64,000 nucleotides of DNA from Candidatus Micrarchaeota archaeon (GTDB taxonomy: Archaea > Micrarchaeota > Micrarchaeia > Micrarchaeales > CABMGC01), in assembly GCA_027334165.1 (NCBI GenBank), contig DAHWXM010000005.1, positions 955 to 64,954 of the forward strand, in the 5' to 3' direction. This document shows, one piece after another, positions 2,748 through 62,050 of this stretch (within the stretch, counting starts at the first letter, position 1; each line of letters opens with the position of its first letter). A program made the position numbers and the translations under genes. Under the pieces are notes generated by a model that was not told the origin of the DNA, did no database searches, and was given only the letters and a program-made list of their open reading frames with translations.

Positions 2748-2964
2748 CCTACTCCTACAATTGAAATTAGGCACGCCATAGTCCGATGCTGGCATCCGCG
2801 CCATTCCTCTGCATCATGCAGAACACTCTGTCACTTCGTAGAGCCATTGCAGTGGGCGTATGGCCGTATCGATTCGAAGCCAGCCATCGGAACTTCTAGA
2901 GATCATTACCCGCTTTTACCTGCAGAATATGGCTCCCGCGTCCTTCGCATCCGAGTCAGCCGGA

Positions 2965-4014
2965 TCATGCTTCCCCGCTCGCGGCCTTCTCGTCCCATAC
3001 CACGGTGTCGTATTCCTTTGCCGTGTTCACCGTCCTTATGGGCAGCCTGCCTAAGAGGATGCGCTCTATCTGTCCGTACTCCACCCTGGCACGCTCCGGT
3101 TTCAGCACCTCCTTGTAATACTTTACCTGCCTCTTGTACGCGGTGTTGTAATCATCAAAGACGCCCATCGCGGCGAAGTCATAGCTGCCTATCAGCTGCG
3201 AGCAGAGGATGTACCTGCTTATGAGTGGGTTGTCTTCATCAGCTTTGTACTCCCTCCTTGTCTTCTGCATGTCCTGCTCGAAGGTCTTCGGCAGAACGTA
3301 CTTTCCGAAGTGGACCATCACGGCAACGTCTTTCGGTATTGACATGGCGATGGTGAATCTCTTCACGTAGTTCATCTTCATCAGCTTCCAGAACTCATAG
3401 GAGACGGTGTTGAAGTGCATGTCCATTTCCTTCGATATCTCCTGGAAGCTTGCCCGCGCGTTCCTGTTCAGGTGCAGGAGCAGATTCTTGTACTTTGGCT
3501 TCAGGTTTGCGGCTTCGATAAGTTTGTTCCGGATAGGGAAGAAGCCGAGTTGCCTGTGAGCTATCTCTGATGGATGCCACATAACATTGTAATCTGCCAG
3601 GGCCACCTGCGTGCCCTTATCCCAGCGCACGTACTCCTGCCTTGAAGGGGCGTTCGCGTATATCAGCATGTCGAACGTGCCTCTCACCTGCGCTACCATC
3701 TGCGGTACGCGCGAGGCGGATAGGAGCTTGCCTATCTCGTCGAAATCAGGTTTATCCTCAAACTTGACCGCTATAAGGTGCTGGTTGGAGAAACCGAGCG
3801 CATCCTCGTTCAGCTCCGGTACATAGTTTATGTCCAGTTCCCCCTCAAGCCGCTTTATCCGCGTTGCAATAGACCTGCGGGATACGTTAAGTTCCTTGGA
3901 AATGCTGGTCAGTGATGCGCGTGAATCCTCCGACAGCATGCGCAGTATCCGCTTGGATACTGTGTTGTAGCGCTGGTTGTACCTGCTGGTGAAGTCCCTC
4001 CCCAAAGATTCCAC
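2965..4014 (-). CDS. Lrp/AsnC-type transcriptional regulator with two HTH modules
   Basis: Two HTH_AsnC-like segments: ILRMLSEDSRASLTSISKELNVSRRSIATRIKRLEGE and LLLHLNRNARASFQEISKEMDMHFNTVSYEFWKL. Confidence 0.7.
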   Translation of the reverse strand: MESLGRDFTSRYNQRYNTVSKRILRMLSEDSRASLTSISKELNVSRRSIATRIKRLEGELDINYVPELNEDALGFSNQHLIAVKFEDKPDFDEIGKLLSASRVPQMVAQVRGTFDMLIYANAPSRQEYVRWDKGTQVALADYNVMWHPSEIAHRQLGFFPIRNKLIEAANLKPKYKNLLLHLNRNARASFQEISKEMDMHFNTVSYEFWKLMKMNYVKRFTIAMSIPKDVAVMVHFGKYVLPKTFEQDMQKTRREYKADEDNPLISRYILCSQLIGSYDFAAMGVFDDYNTAYKRQVKYYKEVLKPERARVEYGQIERILLGRLPIRTVNTAKEYDTVVWDEKAASGEA

Positions 4015-10038: not shown

Positions 10039-10145
10039 CTTTCAAGTCTCGCTTGATAGAGCGTTTTTATAACCTTTTCCTGTTTATCTAATTGCGCGAC
10101 ACCGTAACGGCTCCGCGCCGTGCGTACGGTGTTTGGAGTGTTCAA

Positions 10146-11450
10146 ATGGATGTTCTTCACATATCGGATGTAAGGGAAACGGGAGCAAGCGTCAAATTAA
10201 GGGGATGGGTGCACAGGAAGAGGGTCAGCGGGGGCATAGCGTTCATAGTGATAAGGGACAGGACAGGCACGATACAGGTTGCTGTGAAGAAGGACGGCGT
10301 AGATCCTGAATCATGGAGGGCCGCCGAGGCGGTCACAGTGGAGTCCAGCGTGGAGGTCAACGGGATTGTGAAGGCGGATCCGCGCGCGCCAACTGGGTAC
10401 GAAGTCCAGGCGAGCAGCTTTTCCAGCACCGCCATATCGGAGCCTTATCCGATAACCGAGTATCAGAGCACAGAGCTCCTGCTCGACAAGAGGCACCTGT
10501 GGCTCAGGAGCCAGGGCATGACCGCAGTCATGCGTGCCAGGTCGTACGTATTCAGGCACGCAAGGGAGTTTCTGGACGGCCAGGAGTTCTTCGAGGTCAC
10601 TCCTCCGGTAATAACCAGCGCCGGCGGTGAGACTGGGGCCGACCTGTTCGAAGTGGATTACTTCGGAAAGAAGGCCTACCTTACGGAGTCGTCGCAGCTC
10701 TACGCCGAGGCCATGATATTCTCACTGGAGCGCGTGTACTCGTTCGTGCCGTCATTCAGGGCCGAGAAGTCGCGGACAACAAAGCACCTGGCCGAGTATT
10801 GGCACCTGGAGCCCGAGATGGCGTACTTCGACAACGAGATGAACATGAAACTGCAGGAGGGACTTATCAGCCACATAGCGACGAAGCTTGCAAGCGAGCA
10901 CGGAGACGTGCTCAAGGTGCTGAATGTGGACAGGGCCTCTCTGGAACGCATAAAGCCGCCGTTCAAGCGGCTGAGCTATGAGGACGCAATATCAATACTG
11001 AACGGCAAGGGTTTCAAGCTCAAGTGGGGCGACGACCTCGGCGTGGAGGAGGAGCGTGCCATAACTGCCGATGAGGACAAGCCCATATTCATATGCAATT
11101 GGCCAAAGGAGATAAAGCCTTTCTACATGCCGATAAATCCTGACGATCCGAGAACGGTCGTGTGTTCCGATATGCAGGCCCCTCACGGTCACGGCGAGAT
11201 AATAGGCGGCAGCGAGAGGATCTGGAAGTACGAGGAGCTCATAGCGCGCATGCGCGAGGTCGAGAAGGCAAAAGGGGTGAAGTTCAACATGGACAACTAC
11301 GGCTGGTGGATCGACCTCCGCCGCTACGGCTCGGTGCCTCACGCGGGATTTGGCATGGGCATAGAGCGCGTGATAAAGTGGATGCTCAATCTTGACCACA
11401 TCCGCGATGCGATACCTTTTCCAAGGATGTCCAACCGGCTGGAGCCGTGA
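10146..11450 (+). CDS. asnS: asparaginyl-tRNA synthetase
   Basis: Class IIb aaRS. FRAEKSRTTKHLAEYWHLEPEMAY matches the AsnRS-type EFWM.EPE.AF motif. The C-terminus is IPFPRMSNRLEP. I trimmed the start to ATG 10146 (MDVLHISDV). Confidence 0.8.
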   Translation: MDVLHISDVRETGASVKLRGWVHRKRVSGGIAFIVIRDRTGTIQVAVKKDGVDPESWRAAEAVTVESSVEVNGIVKADPRAPTGYEVQASSFSSTAISEPYPITEYQSTELLLDKRHLWLRSQGMTAVMRARSYVFRHAREFLDGQEFFEVTPPVITSAGGETGADLFEVDYFGKKAYLTESSQLYAEAMIFSLERVYSFVPSFRAEKSRTTKHLAEYWHLEPEMAYFDNEMNMKLQEGLISHIATKLASEHGDVLKVLNVDRASLERIKPPFKRLSYEDAISILNGKGFKLKWGDDLGVEEERAITADEDKPIFICNWPKEIKPFYMPINPDDPRTVVCSDMQAPHGHGEIIGGSERIWKYEELIARMREVEKAKGVKFNMDNYGWWIDLRRYGSVPHAGFGMGIERVIKWMLNLDHIRDAIPFPRMSNRLEP

Positions 11451-12942: not shown

Positions 12943-13033
12943 CCGCTACACTCTAGTCTTTCCGTAAACCATGCGAGTGTGGTTTTTCCAACATTATAAA
13001 GTTAAGCTCTCATGTCTTCGTGCCTATAAAAAG

Positions 13034-13108
13034 CGGGCATGACGGGATTTGAACCCGCAACCAACGGCTCCGCAAGCCGACATGCTATCCAAGTTACACC
13101 ACATGCCC
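13034..13108 (-). tRNA. tRNA-Arg (anticodon GCG)
   Basis: The reverse complement GGGCATGTGGTGTAACTTGGATAGCATGTCGGCTTGCGGAGCCGTTGGTTGCGGGTTCAAATCCCGTCATGCCCG folds as a cloverleaf. Acceptor is GGGCATG/CATGCCC, anticodon loop TTGCGGA, T-arm GCGGG-TTCAAAT-CCCGT. No CCA is encoded. Confidence 0.85.
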
Positions 13109-46574: not shown

Positions 46575-48113
46575 ATGTCAAGAGCAAAATCGAAGCGCCG
46601 TGGTGGCGTGGGCGCACGAAAGGATCGCAGCGACGAACACGCGCAGGCAGCTATAGAGTATCTGACAACCTACGGGTGGGCGATACTCGTGCTCGTAATC
46701 ATAGTCTCATTGCTATACGCGTTTTTCTTCGCCCCATCCTTCATAACTCCTGAAAAGTGCACGATCACTTCCGGCGCGTACTGCAACGACGTTGTCCTGG
46801 GCACCACAGCAAATGCATCTAAACTTGTCATGCTGCTGTCAAACTCTCAGCAGTATCCGATTTCCGAGCTCGGTGTCATACTGAACACGCAGCAGGCCGG
46901 CAACGTTACTGGTAGGTGCTATCCATCCTACGTGCTTCCTGGCGGATCGATAGTCTGCAACGTAACCGTCCCGATAGGATACTCGGTAGGCTCTCTGGTT
47001 TCCGGATCAATATTCGTCAGTGGCAAAAACTGCCCCTCGAATTCCACATCGTGCGCATCAGGGCAGGCGCAGACCTTCACCGGGACAGTTGTCGCGCACG
47101 CGCAACCCGTTCTAGCATCCGAACCTGTAACAATTTCCCTTTACTCTTCCAATCTTACTCCATCAATAAACAGCGGCCAGACGCAGGTCACGGCAAGGGT
47201 GATGCTGCTTGGCTATCCCCTGTCTGGAGCCACTGTAAACTTCACACACAGCGGCGGGTCGAATTACACCCTCGTGCCCTCGGAGGCAACGACTGGCTCA
47301 AACGGGGAAGCCGCAAGCTACCTGTCAGGGCTGAAGCTTGGCCCGGTTCTTGTGAACGCCTCCTTTGCCGGTCATTCGTCATCCATAACGATCAGCTACC
47401 AGCCGCCCAGGTACTACACTACGCTGCCGTACACTACTACTGGAACATCAAATGGCACATACACTACCCAACCCTACTCTCCGCTCTGTTCTCCCACAAT
47501 CTCATTTTCCGGCCAGAACACCGTAACAATAACTTGGTGCGGTGGAACGCCATCGTATTCCGTAACACTCTATTCTGGCACTTCGGCTAACTGTGCCAGC
47601 GACACCAATGTCGTTGCCCTTAATTCCGGCATATCGACTACTTCGACGTCGTTCTCCATTCCTTCCGGCAGCTACTACTACTGCGCTACTGTTACCGACT
47701 CTTCTACGTCCCAACAGACTACGGGCTCCAGCATTGGCACCTCGTCCACTACTTCAACATCCACATCAACAACATCCACTACGTCCTCTACGTCAACCAC
47801 TGTATCCACTTCCGTTTCGACGTCGGTCTCGACCTCCGCCAGTACCACCGCATCAACATCCTCGACTTCCGTTGCAAGCTCCTCGTCAACTACTGCATCA
47901 ACCTCGACATCAAGCATCGCATCTACTTCAACAATAAAGACAACTTCAACCACGGTATCTACGTCAACCACTGTTTCTACTTCGACTACAGTGGCTTCGA
48001 CATCCACGACTGTCTGCGGGGGAGGATGCATAAGCCCTAGCACGGGCATACAATGCTGTGCAAACCCGTGCTCGGTGTACTACGGCGATTGCAGCAACAA
48101 GTGCCTATGCTGA
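46575..48113 (+). CDS. giant pilin-like surface protein A1: class III signal peptide, pilin head, Ig-like domains, S/T stalk, 8-Cys C-terminal knot
   Basis: MSRAKSKRRGGVGARKDRSDEHA-QAAIEYLTTYGWAILVLVIIVSLLYAFFF. A Big_1-like segment follows (ISLYSSNLTPSINSGQTQVTARVMLLGYPLSGATVNFTHSGGS...TTGSNGEAASYLSG...VNASFAGHS). Then come a ~90-aa S/T tract and the ending CGGGCISPSTGIQCCANPCSVYYGDCSNKCLC. Confidence 0.75.
   Translation: MSRAKSKRRGGVGARKDRSDEHAQAAIEYLTTYGWAILVLVIIVSLLYAFFFAPSFITPEKCTITSGAYCNDVVLGTTANASKLVMLLSNSQQYPISELGVILNTQQAGNVTGRCYPSYVLPGGSIVCNVTVPIGYSVGSLVSGSIFVSGKNCPSNSTSCASGQAQTFTGTVVAHAQPVLASEPVTISLYSSNLTPSINSGQTQVTARVMLLGYPLSGATVNFTHSGGSNYTLVPSEATTGSNGEAASYLSGLKLGPVLVNASFAGHSSSITISYQPPRYYTTLPYTTTGTSNGTYTTQPYSPLCSPTISFSGQNTVTITWCGGTPSYSVTLYSGTSANCASDTNVVALNSGISTTSTSFSIPSGSYYYCATVTDSSTSQQTTGSSIGTSSTTSTSTSTTSTTSSTSTTVSTSVSTSVSTSASTTASTSSTSVASSSSTTASTSTSSIASTSTIKTTSTTVSTSTTVSTSTTVASTSTTVCGGGCISPSTGIQCCANPCSVYYGDCSNKCLC
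47740..48014 (+). repeat. S/T-coding low-complexity tract (stalk) of A1
   Basis: It encodes TSSTTSTSTSTTSTTSSTSTTVSTSVSTSVSTSAS...TTVSTSTTVSTSTTVASTSTTV. Synonymous codons are mixed and the periodicity is imperfect. Confidence 0.7.
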
Positions 48114-48127
48114 ACAAGTGATATAGA

Positions 48128-48916
48128 ATGCCAAACGGCAAATCCAACGGTGCAGGGCCATACCACTACGCGTACGGCGAAGCAGACGGTAACCACAGGC
48201 TTGCATACGCCACGGTAGTGATCTCAGCAGTTCTTGTCCTTGCGATCGCATATTTCATATTACATACAAAATACTCCCCTGCACCAGCCAACGCAACGGG
48301 TAATGCATCTTATGGCGCCGCATGGAGGGCCGCATTTCTTGAGTCGTTCCCTCTAAACAGTTCATTGTCCAATATAACGATAATCAACAATCTTACATTC
48401 TACCAGGGCGGCCCATGCAGCGGAACCGCCGCGATAAAATCGGCTGTGTCATCATCCTCTGCCACTTCACAACGCGGTACCGACCTTTCGAGCCTCAATC
48501 CAAGGTTCCCCTTCCTGCAGTATGCTGCGATATATACGGTAAATCAGTCTGATGCTTCGGCGTATGAGAGTGCTATAAGCAACACGGGTCTATGCGAAAA
48601 TTCCTACACCTCCCTGGTGCCGATACTTTCCAGGTCCGAATCTTCATACAGCACAATACAATTCGAAGGGGTCACCCTGCACATATACCTAATATCCAAC
48701 CTTACCGCGGATGAGTTGAACAGCACTGGGTATTACTTCACCGGAAGCAAACCTGACGTTTATTGGTACATGGCCACTACCTCCTACGGAAATTCTGGAT
48801 TGCAATTTGGGTCCCGTGGCTTTGTTTCCAGTGAGAATGTTACGTCGCTGATCGACATGACGAAGGGCTTCGTTTCCGGGTTCATAAATGCATACAATTC
48901 CAACGCTAAAGCGTGA
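48128..48916 (+). CDS. membrane-anchored extracellular partner protein B1
   Basis: An N-terminal TM helix (LAYATVVISAVLVLAIAYFIL) and an N-x-S/T-rich ectodomain. It is a paralog of 51013..51825, sharing ASAY, [ST]GLC, LH.Y and KPD.YWY.ATT.Y...GLQFGS. Confidence 0.6.
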   Translation: MPNGKSNGAGPYHYAYGEADGNHRLAYATVVISAVLVLAIAYFILHTKYSPAPANATGNASYGAAWRAAFLESFPLNSSLSNITIINNLTFYQGGPCSGTAAIKSAVSSSSATSQRGTDLSSLNPRFPFLQYAAIYTVNQSDASAYESAISNTGLCENSYTSLVPILSRSESSYSTIQFEGVTLHIYLISNLTADELNSTGYYFTGSKPDVYWYMATTSYGNSGLQFGSRGFVSSENVTSLIDMTKGFVSGFINAYNSNAKA

Positions 48917-48921
48917 TAAGC

Positions 48922-50988
48922 ATGACAGACCACAAAGGCAGTAAAGAGTTTGCGCAGGCAGCTATAGAGTATCTGACAACCTACGGGTGGGCGATACTGA
49001 TAATAGCCATAATGATCTCGTTCCTCTACGCATTCGTCTTCGCGCCTTCCTTCGTGGTGCCCCAAAAGTGCTCTTTGACATCCGGGGCGTACTGCAATGA
49101 CGTAGTATTCGGAACTTCGCAGGGTGCATCTAGGCTCGTGATGCTGTTATCCAATACGCAGCAATACCCATTCAGTGCCCCCTCCGTGATCGTATCGGTT
49201 CCTGAGTCCGGAAACGTTTCCGGTTCGTGCTATCCGTCCTACGTGCTTCCCGGTGGGGTAATGGTGTGCAATGTCACGATACCTACTGGATATGCGCAAG
49301 GAGCCTTAGTCTCCGGATCAATGTATCTCAACGGTAGGAGCTGCGTGTCAGGCGCAGAAGAATGCGCAGAGGCGCCTTATCAGACATACGCCGGAACGGT
49401 GGTCCTCCATGCCCAGCCCCTGTTGGCGTCAGAGCCTGTGTCCATATCACTGTATTCCTCTAGTCTTGCGCCATCGATAAACAATGGCCAGACGATGCTC
49501 ACTGCAAAGGTCACATTGCTCGGGTATCCCCTTCCTGGAGCAACGGTTAACTTCACCCAGAATGGCGGTAGCAATTACACGATTTTGCCGTCACAATCCG
49601 CAACAGGGTCTGACGGCCGCGCCACGAGCTATATATCTGGCACTCGTGTCGGCCCTGTGGTGGTCAATGCTTCATTTGCAGGACACTCCGCTTCGTTGAA
49701 TCTGAGTTTCCAGCCAAAGGGTTATTACACAACAATTCCGTACACCACAGTTGGAACTGCCAACGGTACCTTCACAACACAGCAATACAGTTCGCTATGC
49801 TCGCCTTCACTCGTCTTTTCTGGGCAATCTTCAATAACCGTGTCATGGTGCGGCGGTACTGCCCCATACTCCGTTACACTGCGCTCAGGAACTTCGCCGA
49901 ACTGCACGCTTGACACTAATGTAGTGGCCACGAACTCCGGAGTAACTACAACATCCACCTCTTTCTCGATATCGCCCGGAAGCTACTATTACTGTGCAGA
50001 AGTTACAGATTCGTCATCATCCCAGCAGACCACCAACTCAAGTGCCGGCGTATCCTCTACGACTTCCACATCGACATCATCTACTACTTCTTCCTCTACA
50101 TCAACATCGAGCACAACCTCCACGTCCGTCTTAACCACTGTTTCGACCGTGGTGACTAACGCCGCAACCAATGCGGGCACCGTGCAACACCTGGGTACAT
50201 GCACATACACCACACCCGTGGGAATACTCGGGTGCCCTTCTGGTGCTTACAACACCACCGAGGAGACATTTCTGCCGTGTTCCTGTTTTGATACGCCTCC
50301 GGGAGGATCGTGTCAGCCGCCATCCTATCCTGTAGGTTACGGATACAGCGGCACGTACGAGGCCTGTGTGTATCCGACGACTTCCACCGTAGCCTCCACG
50401 TCTGTGTCAACATCGGTTTCGACATCAGTTTCCACGTCCGTCTCGACATCAGTAGCTACGACATCCACAACGAAAGCCACAACATCAACAACCAAATCTA
50501 CGACATCTACGGTAAAAACAACGTCTACCACTGTCGCTTCAACCAATGCAGCCACATCGACCGGCGGTGGATGCGTCCTTTGGAATGACACAGTAACGAT
50601 GTACAATGGACAATCCGTGCCGGTGTCGTTCCTATCCGTTGGCGACTACGTGCTTGGATACGATGTTCTAACAGGAAAAACGCAGGCGGTCCGCGTCTCT
50701 CTAATAACCGAGACCAGCACATCTGAGATAGAATTCATAAACGGGAAAATAGGGGTAACACCGTACGATCAGCCAATGTACATAAGCAACTCAACGTACA
50801 CCGGATGGATAAGCAACCCATCGTCCATCCGTGTCGGCTGGTACCTATTCGAACCTGCCACGGATTCGTGGGTCGCAGTGCACAATGTCAGCTATTCTAC
50901 CGGATCGTTCATGGTGTACAACGTGTACACGAATGCTACCAACACCTACGTTGTGGGTGGTGTGCTTGTGGACACAAAGGTCGCGTAA
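48922..50988 (+). CDS. giant pilin-like surface protein A2: as A1 but with extra 6-Cys insert and C-terminal Hint domain
   Basis: MTDHKGSKEFA-QAAIEYLTTYGWAILIIAIMISFLYAFVF. It is collinear with A1 through the Ig-like domains and has two S/T tracts. The C-terminus is GGGCVLWNDTVTMYNGQSVPVSFLSVGDYVLGYD...FMVYNVYTNATNTYVVGGVLVDTKVA. An alternative GTG start lies at 48913. Confidence 0.75.
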   Translation: MTDHKGSKEFAQAAIEYLTTYGWAILIIAIMISFLYAFVFAPSFVVPQKCSLTSGAYCNDVVFGTSQGASRLVMLLSNTQQYPFSAPSVIVSVPESGNVSGSCYPSYVLPGGVMVCNVTIPTGYAQGALVSGSMYLNGRSCVSGAEECAEAPYQTYAGTVVLHAQPLLASEPVSISLYSSSLAPSINNGQTMLTAKVTLLGYPLPGATVNFTQNGGSNYTILPSQSATGSDGRATSYISGTRVGPVVVNASFAGHSASLNLSFQPKGYYTTIPYTTVGTANGTFTTQQYSSLCSPSLVFSGQSSITVSWCGGTAPYSVTLRSGTSPNCTLDTNVVATNSGVTTTSTSFSISPGSYYYCAEVTDSSSSQQTTNSSAGVSSTTSTSTSSTTSSSTSTSSTTSTSVLTTVSTVVTNAATNAGTVQHLGTCTYTTPVGILGCPSGAYNTTEETFLPCSCFDTPPGGSCQPPSYPVGYGYSGTYEACVYPTTSTVASTSVSTSVSTSVSTSVSTSVATTSTTKATTSTTKSTTSTVKTTSTTVASTNAATSTGGGCVLWNDTVTMYNGQSVPVSFLSVGDYVLGYDVLTGKTQAVRVSLITETSTSEIEFINGKIGVTPYDQPMYISNSTYTGWISNPSSIRVGWYLFEPATDSWVAVHNVSYSTGSFMVYNVYTNATNTYVVGGVLVDTKVA
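50050..50160 (+). repeat. first S/T tract of A2
   Basis: It encodes VSSTTSTSTSSTTSSSTSTSSTTSTSVLTTVSTVV. Confidence 0.6.
50377..50562 (+). repeat. second S/T(K) tract of A2
   Basis: It encodes TTSTVASTSVSTSVSTSVSTSVSTSVATTSTTKATTSTTKSTTSTVKTTSTTVASTNAATST and lies directly before GGGC. Confidence 0.65.
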
Positions 50989-58107: not shown

Positions 58108-59466
58108 TCACGGCGTCAGCCTTTCCCGGTCGCGCGGGAACATGGCGCACTCCCGTATATTAGTACTGCCTGTCAACTTCATCGTTATTCTCTCCAGTCC
58201 GAGGCTCCATCCCGCATGCGGAGGAGCTCCCATCCTAAAGGCATTTATGTAGAACTCGAATTCCTTCGGGTCTAGGCCCCTCTTTTCAAGGGCGCCGATG
58301 AGTAGCGATGGTTTGTGTATACGCTGGGCTCCGCTCGATATTTCCAGTCCCTTGTATATAAGATCATAGCTGTTTGAGACTTCGGGGTCGCCGGAGTTCG
58401 GCATGCTGTAAAATGCCCTTATGCTCGTCGGATATTCTTTCACTATGATCGCGTCACCATACAGCCGTGTGAGCATCGTTTCATCATCACGGCTGAAATC
58501 TTGCCCGAACTCAATCTTAGAGCCATTAGCCGCTAGCTTGGATATTGCTTTTTTGTACGTAACGTCCTTCACCCTGCTCTTCTGAAACTCGACTCCGAGA
58601 GTCTCAAGGTCGGCAGCGCTCTCCTTAAGCACAGCGTCTAATATCGAGGAAAATGCCTTCTTCAGCATTGCTATCGCGTCATTGTGATCTGCAAATCCCA
58701 TCTCGATATCCATCTGTGTGCTCTCGTTCAGATGGAATATGGTGTTGTGCTTTTCGGCTCTGAACACCGGAACGGTCATGAACACCCTGTCCATACCTCC
58801 TATGACTGCCAATTGCTTGTATATCTGCGGAGACTGTGCCAGGTACGCCTTCTTCTCAAAGTAGCCTATCTGGAACAAGTCTGCACCGCCTTCGGTTGCC
58901 GCTTCGACTATGCTGGGTGGTCTTATCTCCTGGAAGCCGTTCTTTGCTGCAAAGTTCCTAAAGCCATGAAGCACAGCGGACTGTATGTTGAAAATGGCCG
59001 TGGTCTCCTTCCTCCTGAGATCCACGTACCTGTAGTTTAGCCTTACATCAAGCTCGGCCGGAACCTTCCCAGTAACCTCAAACGGCATGCTGCGCTCAAG
59101 CGGATTCAGGTCGATTACGCGCACAGGAAGCAGCTCGAACCCGTTCCTCACCTGCGGATTCTTCTTAATCCTTCCACGTATCGTCACTACGCTTTCCTTA
59201 GGAAGATCCATGGCCTTCATGACCTGCGGATCAGATGTGCCCTCCTTTGCCGTGACCTGCACTATGCCGCTGTGATCTCTTAGCAGGAGGAATATGATCT
59301 TTCCTATGTTCCGGGTCTCATGTACCCATCCCGCCACCTCCACTTCGGAACCTTCCGGAACAGATGCCAATTCCGAAACGTAGTGGCTCCTGTATTCGTT
59401 TCTCAATGTAACACCACATATCTCTTGGCGTGAGGTATTAAAATACTCTGCTGTGTACGCCATCAC
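58108..59466 (-). CDS. aspS: aspartyl-tRNA synthetase (archaeal type)
   Basis: Class IIb aaRS with [37 protein letters not shown] and C-terminus [10 protein letters not shown]. Confidence 0.88.
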
Positions 59467-59940: not shown

Positions 59941-60576
59941 TTATCGCGACTCGTCCTTCTCCAACAGTATCTCTATGGAACTAACCTTGGACGTGCTTCC
60001 ATCCTCGTTTTCTATCGCTTCGGAATTTATTGCGATACTGTCAGTGCTGGGGTTTTTCGCAGCGGCGACGAACCGGTTCCTTGCAATTTCCACTACGTCG
60101 ACGGCCTTGCTTATGGCATTGCCGCGCGCCTTCACCGTAACGCTGTCACGACCGTTGTTCATCTGCGTGACTACTGCGAGCACGTAGTTCATGGTTGGCT
60201 TCTTTCCTATCAGCACAGAATTCTCAATAAGGTTTTCTACAACAGGGTGCTCTCCATCAAGCTTTGATAGCAGTATCTGGATCGAACTGACCTTCGACTT
60301 TGTACCATCCTCGTTCGATATCTCCTCCGAGCCTATCTGTATGTTTGCGCTGCTGGGGCTTTTCAGTGATGTCATGAACCTATTCCGGACTATCTCGGCG
60401 ACATCGACGGCCTTGCTTATGGCATTGCCCCTTGCTCGTATCCGTACGTTATCCGCACCGTTGTTAAACTGCGTGACTACTGCGAGCACGTAGTTCATTG
60501 GCGGCTTCTTCCCAACCAAAACGACGTTGTTCCGAACTGCCACGTTGCCATCCATGTTGTTGTTTTCCTCCTCCAT
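59941..60576 (-). CDS. albA: tandem-Alba chromatin/RNA-binding protein (two Alba domains in one chain)
   Basis: The first domain is [51 protein letters not shown]...[12 protein letters not shown]. The second is [51 protein letters not shown]...[12 protein letters not shown]. Confidence 0.85.
59961..60531 (-). repeat. intragenic tandem duplication (~270 nt x2) encoding the two Alba domains
   Basis: The DNA units at 59961-60228 and 60264-60531 share long near-identical runs, for example ctactgcgagcacgtagttcat in both. Confidence 0.75.
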
Positions 60577-60694: not shown

Positions 60695-61753
60695 TCACGA
60701 GGCGCCCTGGCACATGGTGCTGTTTGCATAGCACACTGCGTTGTTTGCCGTTTGAGGTATAGCCAGGTATTTGCAGTCCACCACGACCGCGGGCACACTG
60801 GTTATGTTGTAGTACGATGCAAATAATGCCTGTGCATTTACGGTGCTGGATGCGCTGTTCACACAGGCATCAAGCGCGGTCACGTTCAGCCCCGCGGTAC
60901 CGGATATGCTCTCCAGGGTATTCTGCGATATGTAATCGCCTCCATAGATGCTGTTCAGTGCTGATGAAAAGTTTCCAAATCCACTTTGCAGTGAGGCACA
61001 CATGACGTACTTTCCGAGGTACTGCGCATCGAGCGCCCCGACCTGATCGGCTATGCGCTGGTATGAGCTGCCGTACACCGTCTTGATCGATATGTTTATC
61101 CCGTTACCGTACTCCTTTTTTAATGCCGTTATATTTTCGAGGCTCTGCACCGCGCCAGGAGCGTATGGATCCATGAACCAGTACGCCTGCAGCGGAGACC
61201 TTACAAGGCACGTCGGTTTTCCGGACAGAGCTACTACTCCGCGTGATACCACCATGTCACCGGTAGGATATGGTCGCGCGAGCTGTATGAATGGGGTAAC
61301 CAGCGAGCCATTCGCATCGCTTATCAGTGCCGATACGTAAAACGTTCCATTTCCAGCGGCGGAGTATGAGGGGATGCTAACGTACCAGTCTTTCAACTGC
61401 GGAATGTAACTGGCATTTGTCATGGAGGTGTCAGTGTAGAAAGGAAGCAGGGAAAGGGAGCTGTTTGTCTGCAGGTAACCCGCAACCATGCCATCAGCGA
61501 TCTTCTTTATCTGACTGGCGGTGTACCTGGTTGTGTTTCCCGGTGTGCTTGCGTTCTGGGTGGCGTTCTGCTGCGGCATTACAACCGGCTTGTAGTACGA
61601 CACTATCAACAACAAAGCAATCAATACAAGCGCGAGCACTATTAGCGCAACGTGAATCCCGTCAAGGCCACCGAATCCCTTGACAGGACGTACGAGTACG
61701 CTCGGCTCATTTATGCTCCCGGAAATTCCCTTCTTTCCTCCCTTGCCTGCCAT
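60695..61753 (-). CDS. membrane-anchored DsbA-like thioredoxin-fold protein lacking the CxxC active site
   Basis: An N-terminal TM helix (IHVALIVLALVLIALLLIV) is present. The C-terminal half aligns by eye with DsbA/Thioredoxin_4. AYWFMDPYAPGAV sits where ..F.D..CP.C. is expected, and NITSVPAVVVDCKY where g.gTPtfvvnGk is expected. Confidence 0.55.
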   Translation of the reverse strand: MAGKGGKKGISGSINEPSVLVRPVKGFGGLDGIHVALIVLALVLIALLLIVSYYKPVVMPQQNATQNASTPGNTTRYTASQIKKIADGMVAGYLQTNSSLSLLPFYTDTSMTNASYIPQLKDWYVSIPSYSAAGNGTFYVSALISDANGSLVTPFIQLARPYPTGDMVVSRGVVALSGKPTCLVRSPLQAYWFMDPYAPGAVQSLENITALKKEYGNGINISIKTVYGSSYQRIADQVGALDAQYLGKYVMCASLQSGFGNFSSALNSIYGGDYISQNTLESISGTAGLNVTALDACVNSASSTVNAQALFASYYNITSVPAVVVDCKYLAIPQTANNAVCYANSTMCQGAS

Positions 61754-61766
61754 GTTAACACCAAAA

Positions 61767-61870
61767 CGGGTCCGACGGGAATTTCATGGGATGCATGCTG
61801 CATGCCCAATTTGAACCCGCGACCATCACCTTAGGACGGTGCTGCTCTATCCAAGCTGAGCTACGGACCC
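61767..61870 (-). tRNA. tRNA-Arg (anticodon CCU) with a 29-nt BHB intron in the T-loop (59/60)
   Basis: The reverse complement is GGGTCCGTAGCTCAGCTTGGATAGAGCAGCACCGTCCTAAGGTGATGGTCGCGGGTTCAAATTGGGCATGCAGCATGCATCCCATGAAATTCCCGTCGGACCCG. Acceptor is GGGTCCG/CGGACCC, D-arm GCTC/GAGC, anticodon loop GTCCTAA. The T-stem GCGGG/CCCGT is interrupted by 36 nt instead of 7. The intron is at about 61781-61809. TTTT follows the 3' end. Confidence 0.8.
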
Positions 61871-62050
61871 ATTATGTGATTAAAATGTGCGTATCAACAA
61901 ATAAAAACCTGTTGGAAGGCAGGGATGCTTTCCGGTGTTTGAACTTCAAATGTATCATATAGCACAATAAAGTCAGATTTTGTACTTCATACTACGATAC
62001 GTTATTAATTGTGATTTGCCATTTCCCATAATAGCAATCCTAGTGATTAG

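Follow-up and report, generated by a model that had tools for sequence, protein, structure and literature searches.

Structure and Genomic Context of the tRNA-Arg(CCU) Locus

The window (here, the whole 64-kb stretch of DNA that was analysed) carries a tRNA-Arg(CCU) gene on its minus strand, at 61870..61767, and direct reading of the sequence gives a pre-tRNA of 104 nt. The two strands of its T-stem are separated by an insert, an A/T-rich box lies upstream, and an open reading frame (ORF) follows closely downstream. In the direction of the gene, the features of the locus are:

61899..61907, minus strand: TATA-like A/T-rich box TTTTTATTT, a putative archaeal promoter that precedes tRNA position 1 by 29-37 nt
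61767..61870, minus strand: complete pre-tRNA-Arg(CCU), tRNA positions 1-73; CCA is not encoded
61810..61870, minus strand: 5' exon, tRNA positions 1-59, extending through T-loop nucleotides 54-59 (TTCAAA)
61781..61809, minus strand: predicted bulge-helix-bulge (BHB) intron of 29 nt at position 59/60, T-TGGG-C-ATGCA-GCA-TGCAT-CCCA-TGAA-AT
61767..61780, minus strand: 3' exon, tRNA positions 60-73, with U60, CCCGT, CGGACCC and the discriminator G
60695..61753, minus strand: ORF of 352 aa from a Micrarchaeota-specific family, possibly DsbA-like, with its ATG 13 nt after the tRNA 3' end

Read 5' to 3', the gene begins GGGTCCG-TA-GCTC-AGCTTGGATA-GAGC-A-GCACC-GTCCTAA-GGTGA-TGGTC-GCGGG, so that the 5' exon holds the 5' strand of the acceptor stem, the D-arm, the anticodon arm, the variable loop and the 5' strand of the T-stem (GCGGG). 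After this strand it continues TTCAAATTGGGCATGCAGCATGCATCCCATGAAATT-CCCGT-CGGACCC-G. The acceptor stem (GGGTCCG/CGGACCC) is paired at all seven positions, and the D-stem is GCTC/GAGC. The anticodon arm, GCACC-GTCCTAA-GGTGA, has a 7-nt loop with U33 and places the anticodon CCT at 61835..61833. Its stem contains one mismatch, G27.A43 (window positions 61842 and 61826). A pair other than Watson-Crick is kept at 27:43 in 24 of 25 distinct orthologues, and by this comparison the mismatch is a conserved feature of tRNA-Arg(CCU) and not an error. In the D-loop AGCTTGGATA, the base after G18G19 is an A, and C35 is present in the anticodon; C35 and the D-loop A20 may be Arg identity nucleotides here, an assignment carried over from E. 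coli and yeast. A similar A/T-rich box occurs about 25-40 nt upstream of the tRNA in most of the archaeal orthologous loci, and the position of TTTTTATTT at -37..-29 is consistent with a putative archaeal promoter.

An initial annotation of this DNA, made from the sequence, had proposed a tRNA-Arg(CCU) with an intron in the T-loop and had described the acceptor, D-arm and anticodon arm as normal. The assignment stands, with the addition that the gene lies on the minus strand, which had been left unstated. The description of the arms is correct for the fully paired acceptor stem and for the presence of the D-arm and the anticodon arm, but "normal" is slightly generous in view of G27.A43.

The window has a G+C content of 51% and encodes archaeal housekeeping proteins, including EF-1alpha, deoxyhypusine synthase, FEN1, Alba, an archaeal SAM synthetase and several aminoacyl-tRNA synthetases. 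The best match to the aspartyl-tRNA synthetase (AspRS) encoded at 58108..59466 (minus strand) is 75% identical (locus L084), and its best named homologues, at 60-71% identity, come from genomes labelled Candidatus Micrarchaeota, Micrarchaeia, Micrarchaeales or Micrarchaeaceae. These labels bear out the earlier suggestion of an ARMAN-type lineage, and on the basis of the protein matches the host is a member of the Micrarchaeota, ARMAN-2 lineage, within the DPANN archaea. Among about 55 ORFs in the window, none has a Pfam family corresponding to the splicing endonuclease EndA or the ligase RtcB; the type of EndA (epsilon2) is therefore assumed from the lineage.

Several other genes of the window are recorded here in their own right. 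Two class-II aminoacyl-tRNA synthetases of the Asp/Asn/Lys type are encoded within the 64 kb, at 10092..11450 (plus strand) and 58108..59466 (minus strand), and the latter is named a non-discriminating AspRS in relatives. A 211-aa protein encoded at 59941..60576 (minus strand) has two tandem Alba domains. L084/L085 also have such a protein, of 205 aa, and at the syntenic position five other loci (L087, L088, L089, L091 and L095) have a gene for just one Alba of about 90-100 aa. Two adjacent large ORFs at 46575..50988 (plus strand), of 512 and 691 aa, each contain a Big_1 domain of the bacterial Ig-like type and may encode surface proteins of an episymbiont-type archaeon.

A 29-nt Insert Forms a Strict Bulge-Helix-Bulge Motif

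The strands of the T-stem, GCGGG (61820..61816) and CCCGT (61779..61775), lie 36 nt apart. The intervening sequence can be divided into the elements of a BHB motif as follows, where a slash marks the predicted cut:

61812..61815, minus strand: central 4-bp helix H, 5' strand TTCA (T-loop positions 54-57), pairing with TGAA at 61783..61786
61809..61811, minus strand: 5' bulge AA/T, with the 5' splice site predicted by the BHB rule between 61810 and 61809
61787..61808, minus strand: intron-side helix h', TGGG/CCCA, extended by ATGCA/TGCAT around the loop GCA
61783..61786, minus strand: central helix H, 3' strand TGAA, within the intron, the partner of TTCA
61780..61782, minus strand: 3' bulge AT/T, with the 3' splice site predicted by the BHB rule between 61781 and 61780

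This arrangement is a strict hBHBh' motif: two 3-nt bulges on opposite strands enclose the 4-bp helix TTCA/TGAA, and both flanking helices are present. The first of these, h, is the T-stem GCGGG/CCCGT itself (100% paired), and the second, h', consists of TGGG/CCCA plus ATGCA/TGCAT. The TGGG strand occupies 61808..61805 and the CCCA strand 61790..61787, with CATGCAGCATGCAT (61804..61791) in between. Because one strand of the central helix is UUCA, a T-loop sequence that is universally conserved, the 3' part of the intron is fixed as UGAA. If each bulge is cut after its second nucleotide, exactly 61809..61781 is lost and the remaining T-loop reads TTCAAAT; the T-arm then becomes GCGGG-TTCAAAT-CCCGT, identical to that of the intron-less tRNA-Arg(GCG) encoded at 13033..13108 (minus strand). 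The initial annotation had read the locus in this way, from the 36-nt spacing and the bulges AAT and ATT to the removal of 29 nt and the match with tRNA-Arg(GCG), and each of these elements is found in the sequence. The motif is also conserved in orthologues, in which h' covaries.

A strict hBHBh' motif arose in 2.2e-4 of 1,000,000 shuffles of the intron. A gapped pattern built on the exons had its sole match in the window at this locus, where two overlapping registers of the variable gap fitted, and it matched in 0 of 100 shuffles of the window. When the T-arm and intron were folded together, the BHB structure had a free energy of -18.6 kcal/mol vs -18.7 kcal/mol for the minimum free energy (MFE) structure, and the pairs of the central helix had probabilities of 0.44-0.48. 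The BHB fold is thus co-optimal and not the unique MFE structure. It need not be, we infer, because nearest-neighbour energy rules penalise the two bulges.

When the window sequence is taken by itself, a cut at 59/60 and one at 60/61 yield an identical product, and the exact register therefore rests on the BHB rule and on the comparison with relatives. No other copy of the insert was found in the window, and no direct repeats flank it. A group I or group II intron and an IS insertion, which would bring a catalytic RNA core or an ORF, a length of hundreds of nucleotides and terminal repeats, were considered as candidates and ruled out, given the length of 29 nt and this absence of repeats and of further copies in the window. 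No Rfam family other than tRNA matched at the locus.

Common tRNA Finders Overlook the Gene

A search of the window with ARAGORN and with Rfam at the gathering threshold found only the tRNA-Arg(GCG) gene. ARAGORN, which the initial annotation had named as a check, called no tRNA in the 104-nt precursor, even with its intron option, but it called a 75-nt tRNA-Arg(cct) once 61809..61781 had been deleted. A permissive Rfam search of the unspliced gene returned a partial match that skipped the T-arm and scored 21.8 bits vs a gathering score of 29. ARAGORN and the Rfam tRNA model also miss every orthologue with a T-loop intron. Micrarchaeota genomes annotated with these tools will therefore seem to lack the AGG-decoding tRNA-Arg(CCU), and both their completeness and their decoding capacity will be misjudged as a result. 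The main value of the finding is accordingly practical and concerns annotation, since common tRNA finders miss the gene. We found no further missed tRNAs in the window. Across 577 kb of loci, a search for T-loop BHB inserts in other tRNAs returned only Arg(CCU) genes and chance matches in bacterial contigs.

The Insert Is Conserved at an Orthologous Site Across Micrarchaeota

The gapped exon pattern was checked on the window and then run over metagenome contigs, where it returned 76 loci. Of these matches, 44 were archaeal tRNA-Arg(CCU) genes in which an insert occupies the same site; they represent 31 distinct genes with the window included. About 30 of the 76 loci were bacterial tRNA-Arg(CCU) genes in which a downstream CCCG fitted the gapped pattern by chance; these were excluded by requiring the acceptor stem and the BHB layout. 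Because the search pattern required an insert, this metagenome set is biased to intron-bearing genes. Syntenic look-ups through AspRS homologues yielded the closest relatives, L084/L085 (GCA_027371795.1) and L086 (GCA_964419095.1), and eight homologues of the downstream ORF gave an unbiased sample (L088-L095). In this small, unbiased sample the tRNA adjoins the ORF in seven loci, six of which have the intron. The total comes to 38 distinct intron-bearing orthologous genes on Micrarchaeota contigs, all with the insert at the same site and with lengths of 13-47 nt. Splicing in silico gave a 75-nt product that ARAGORN called as tRNA-Arg(cct) in every case (38/38).

The exons and the introns of these genes have very different patterns of conservation. 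Exons are nearly invariant across 25 distinct spliced sequences, and the anticodon CCU is invariant. Between the window and L084, the exons are identical at 75/75 positions and the AspRS at 75%, and the two 29-nt introns agree little beyond their ends (TGGG...CCCA in the window vs TTGCC...GGCAA in L084). Relatives show compensatory replacements of h': TTGCC/GGCAA in L084, TGTCAAG/CTTGGTA in L086, TACC/GGTA in L088 and TGCCA/TGGCA in L089. The interiors of the orthologous introns are unrelated and unconstrained in sequence, whereas the BHB elements are conserved. In the metagenome-scan set, the bulge length of 3 nt is kept in all orthologues, and the central helix is fully paired in 23 of the 31 distinct genes (window included).

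BHB pairs were counted in the 21 long-intron genes. In this set, 89.5% of BHB cells are paired vs 37-55% with the 3' partner slid out of register, and 91.7% of central-helix cells are paired. The first four pairs of h' are paired in 83% of cells vs 31-64% in slid registers, and all six h' pairs change on both sides across the orthologues. None of 500 shuffles reached the observed paired percentage, the number of cells changed on both sides, or the covariation score. The tRNA body gives a comparable picture: in the spliced sequences, 95.4% of cloverleaf cells are paired vs 23-46% in slid registers, the acceptor stem is 100% paired in the 25 sequences, and its pairs 4:69, 5:68 and 6:67 covary across the intron.

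The short introns depart from this pattern. Several orthologues, among them L013 and L091, have introns of 13-16 nt without a credible h', which look relaxed. Their relaxed appearance would fit the broad-specificity epsilon2 enzyme of the lineage.

Two further observations concern individual loci. One gene (L090; GCA_028866995.1, at about 2850..2990) contains two introns, a relaxed one of 14 nt at 37/38 and one of 47 nt at 59/60. Three independent Logan assemblies of the ArgG locus (contigs L003, L004 and L005) share a start 207 nt before ArgG, at a point inside the 5' exon of the tRNA that corresponds to about position 61844 of the window. These starts likely reflect a break in the assembly graph at exon sequence common to co-occurring Micrarchaeota species.

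An Intron-Less Orthologue Fixes the Exon Junction

One member of the unbiased sample, L094 (GCA_028866905.1, 1414..1488), has the same genomic context but its tRNA-Arg(CCU) gene contains no intron; this gene scores 61.9 bits against the Rfam tRNA model. Its sequence equals the predicted spliced product of five intron-bearing genes (L032, L033, L036, L037 and L093) at 75/75 positions. The exon junction is therefore fixed as ...TTCAAA/T CCCG.... Moreover, the bulges in most relatives read AAA and AAT, so that only the 59/60 register gives the TTCAAAT loop seen in L094. This gene may represent either a precise natural loss of the intron or the ancestral state. The junction between the tRNA and the downstream ORF is kept in L094, and the intron is therefore not required for that junction.

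A Tight Junction With a Downstream ORF

The spacer between the tRNA and the 352-aa ORF, TTTTGGTGTTAAC, contains a Shine-Dalgarno (SD)-like GGTG. At about 45 loci the tRNA is followed by a homologue of this ORF. Among 37 distinct loci, 35 have a spacer of 1-18 nt that contains no T5 run, and an SD-like motif is present in 18 of these 35 spacers. The family comprises 64 homologues, whose source names are mostly Micrarchaeota (two are Marsarchaeota) and some of which are labelled "DsbA family" by NCBI; protein identity falls to 32-33% across the clade, and Pfam gave no match to the 352-aa ORF. The arrangement suggests a conserved tRNA-mRNA co-transcript, in which RNase Z, with a predicted site at 61766, would make the 5' end of the mRNA.

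In the searchable literature we found no description of this tight tRNA-ORF junction, nor of this intron being kept at an orthologous site across a clade so diverged. As the tRNA tables in the supplement to Fujishima et al. (2011) fell outside the search, both negatives count only weakly towards novelty.

Interpretation of the Interrupted Gene

The interval 61870..61767 (minus strand) is very probably a functional tRNA-Arg(CCU) gene that is split at 59/60 by a 29-nt archaeal BHB intron. Three other explanations were weighed. The gene might be a pseudogene, inactivated by a chance 29-nt insertion in the T-loop or by the scar of an integrated element. Standard finders do fail to recognise it, and tRNA 3' halves are common targets of integration (Randau and Soll, cited in PMC3488258). 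Yet the exons are intact and constrained, being identical at 75/75 positions to those of a relative whose AspRS is only 75% identical, and the acceptor stem covaries across the insert. An origin by chance is also at odds with the 38 distinct orthologues that have an insert at the exact site, with a conserved BHB and a covarying h', and with an insert that lacks flanking direct repeats and occurs nowhere else in the window. We consider inactivation extremely unlikely.

Retention of the insert in the mature RNA, either as an enlarged T-arm with an extra hairpin or as part of a tRNA-like RNA with another role, seems very unlikely as well. The T-stem and intron hairpin would be stable on its own (MFE of -18.7 kcal/mol), but a T-loop carrying the insert could not make the interaction with the D-loop that is conserved in tRNA structure. 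What varies and what is kept also speaks against retention: the length ranges over 13-47 nt, the interior is unconstrained, only the BHB elements that EndA requires are conserved, and the intron-less orthologue equals the spliced form. Furthermore, in vitro cleavage has been demonstrated for the ARMAN-2 tRNA-Cys intron, which occupies the same position (PMC3488258). A last alternative accepts cleavage of the BHB but assigns the tRNA and BHB chiefly the role of a maturation signal for the mRNA of the 352-aa ORF. Its appeal lies in the proximity of the ORF, 13 nt after the tRNA in the window and after 1-18 nt without a T5 run in 35/37 loci, with SD-like motifs in 18/35. The conservation and covariation of the cloverleaf and the invariant anticodon CCU nevertheless point to a decoding tRNA, and the intron-less orthologue keeps the tRNA-ORF junction. 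The two roles are in any case mutually compatible, and a role confined chiefly to mRNA maturation appears exceedingly improbable.

A broader proposition goes beyond the functional, intron-containing tRNA gene that we favour. It holds that the 59/60 intron is ancient, orthologously retained in Micrarchaeia and selected within a tRNA-mRNA unit, as opposed to being a recent and neutral gain of the transposition type. On this proposition, the 3' end of the tRNA would form the 5' boundary of the mRNA for the downstream membrane protein of 350 aa, and splicing in the T-loop would be functional. We regard it as unlikely. What the comparison shows is a position conserved in 38 distinct genes and a close tRNA-ORF junction; the precise loss of the intron in one lineage, with the junction kept, argues that the intron is dispensable. 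If the proposition were true, splicing might keep integrases away from the gene's 3' half; alternatively, it might set the order in which the T-loop folds and RNase Z cleaves, and thereby time the release of the downstream mRNA.

Predicted Splicing Pathway

Recognition of the BHB by archaeal EndA does not depend on the mature tRNA domain, and the enzyme cuts inside each bulge (PMC3488258, PMC4090602), after the second bulge nucleotide according to the BHB rule (PMC3488258), and RtcB-type ligation then joins the exons (PMC3488258, PMC4090602). Applied to the precursor described here, this would mean that the T-stem (h), the helix of UUCA (54-57) with UGAA (H), the two 3-nt bulges and the intron hairpin (h') assemble into the strict hBHBh' substrate. 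EndA, expected to be of the epsilon2 type in this lineage, would by analogy cut after the second nucleotide of each bulge, and an RtcB-type ligase would then join A59 to U60. The predicted product is a tRNA of 75 nt with the canonical T-loop UUCAAAU and the junction ...GGGUUCAAA/UCCCGU.... We infer transcription, cleavage and ligation in vivo, as well as the type of EndA.

The types of EndA differ in the substrates that they accept: alpha4 and alpha'2 enzymes accept only strict motifs, while alpha2beta2 and epsilon2 enzymes also accept relaxed ones (PMC3488258, PMC4090602). The intron in the window is strict, and therefore it should in principle be cleavable by any archaeal EndA type and not only by those with broad specificity. 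The 38 natural variants, which span lengths of 13-47 nt and grade from strict into relaxed motifs, together with one precise deletion, are possible substrates for work on EndA specificity.

Comparison With Known Archaeal tRNA Introns

At this locus, the strict BHB intron at position 59/60 is a clean example, validated by sequence comparison, and adds one more to a well-described class in the expected lineage. It leaves knowledge of archaeal tRNA splicing unchanged. The 59/60 site is a listed non-canonical intron position (PMC4090602). In ARMAN-2, introns are reported in 56% of tRNA genes (PMC3488258); the 59/60 intron of its tRNA-Cys(GCA) is relaxed, and that of its tRNA-Pro(GGG) is strict and accompanied by an intron at 53/54 (PMC3239211). 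The initial annotation had called introns at 59/60 rare and had treated the intron as a lineage marker. The first statement is overstated for a lineage in which so many tRNA genes are interrupted (PMC3488258, PMC3239211). As a marker the intron is imperfect: it is present in Micrarchaeota, but 59/60 introns are also found in Crenarchaeota and Nanoarchaeota (PMC4090602), and L094 does not have it.

In the Thermoproteales, Crenarchaeota and Nanoarchaeota, BHB introns likewise lie outside 37/38, with 59/60 among the listed positions, and are missed by finders that consider only the anticodon loop. These introns are described as having been acquired recently through transposition, and different tRNAs carry similar intron sequences (Sugahara, 2008; Fujishima, 2010; both as cited in PMC4090602). 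The gene in the window differs from them in belonging to another phylum, their EndA being of the alpha2beta2 type. It also differs from such transposed introns in that a single tRNA is affected, the site is orthologous across the clade, and the intron interiors are unrelated.

The likeness to the canonical BHB intron at 37/38 is one of geometry. In both, an exon stem is followed by a 4-bp helix formed between the first four loop nucleotides and the intron, by 3-nt bulges that are cut after their second nucleotide and by an intron helix. As in the 37/38 type, the 5' bulge here takes in two nucleotides from the end of the exon and one from the start of the intron, and the 3' bulge mirrors it. 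The difference is that the T-arm replaces the anticodon arm.

The nearest counterparts come from ARMAN-2 itself, from which epsilon2 EndA is known (PMC3239211). Its pre-tRNA-Cys shares the lineage and the intron position with the gene described here, and the short introns of 13-16 nt in some orthologues look similarly relaxed. The T-loop intron of this tRNA-Cys is excised in vitro by epsilon2 EndA, the only experimental case in which a Micrarchaeota EndA removes a T-loop intron (PMC3488258). Unlike that relaxed intron, the intron in the window is strict, with both bulges and both flanking helices. In this respect it resembles the pre-tRNA-Pro(GGG) of ARMAN-2 (Ca. Micrarchaeum acidiphilum), which shares with it the lineage, the 59/60 position and a strict hBHBh' built on the T-stem (Fujishima et al., 2011, Fig. 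1C; PMC3239211). The two differ in tRNA identity and in intron number: the Pro gene has a second intron at 53/54, whereas the tRNA-Arg(CCU) gene of the window has a single intron.
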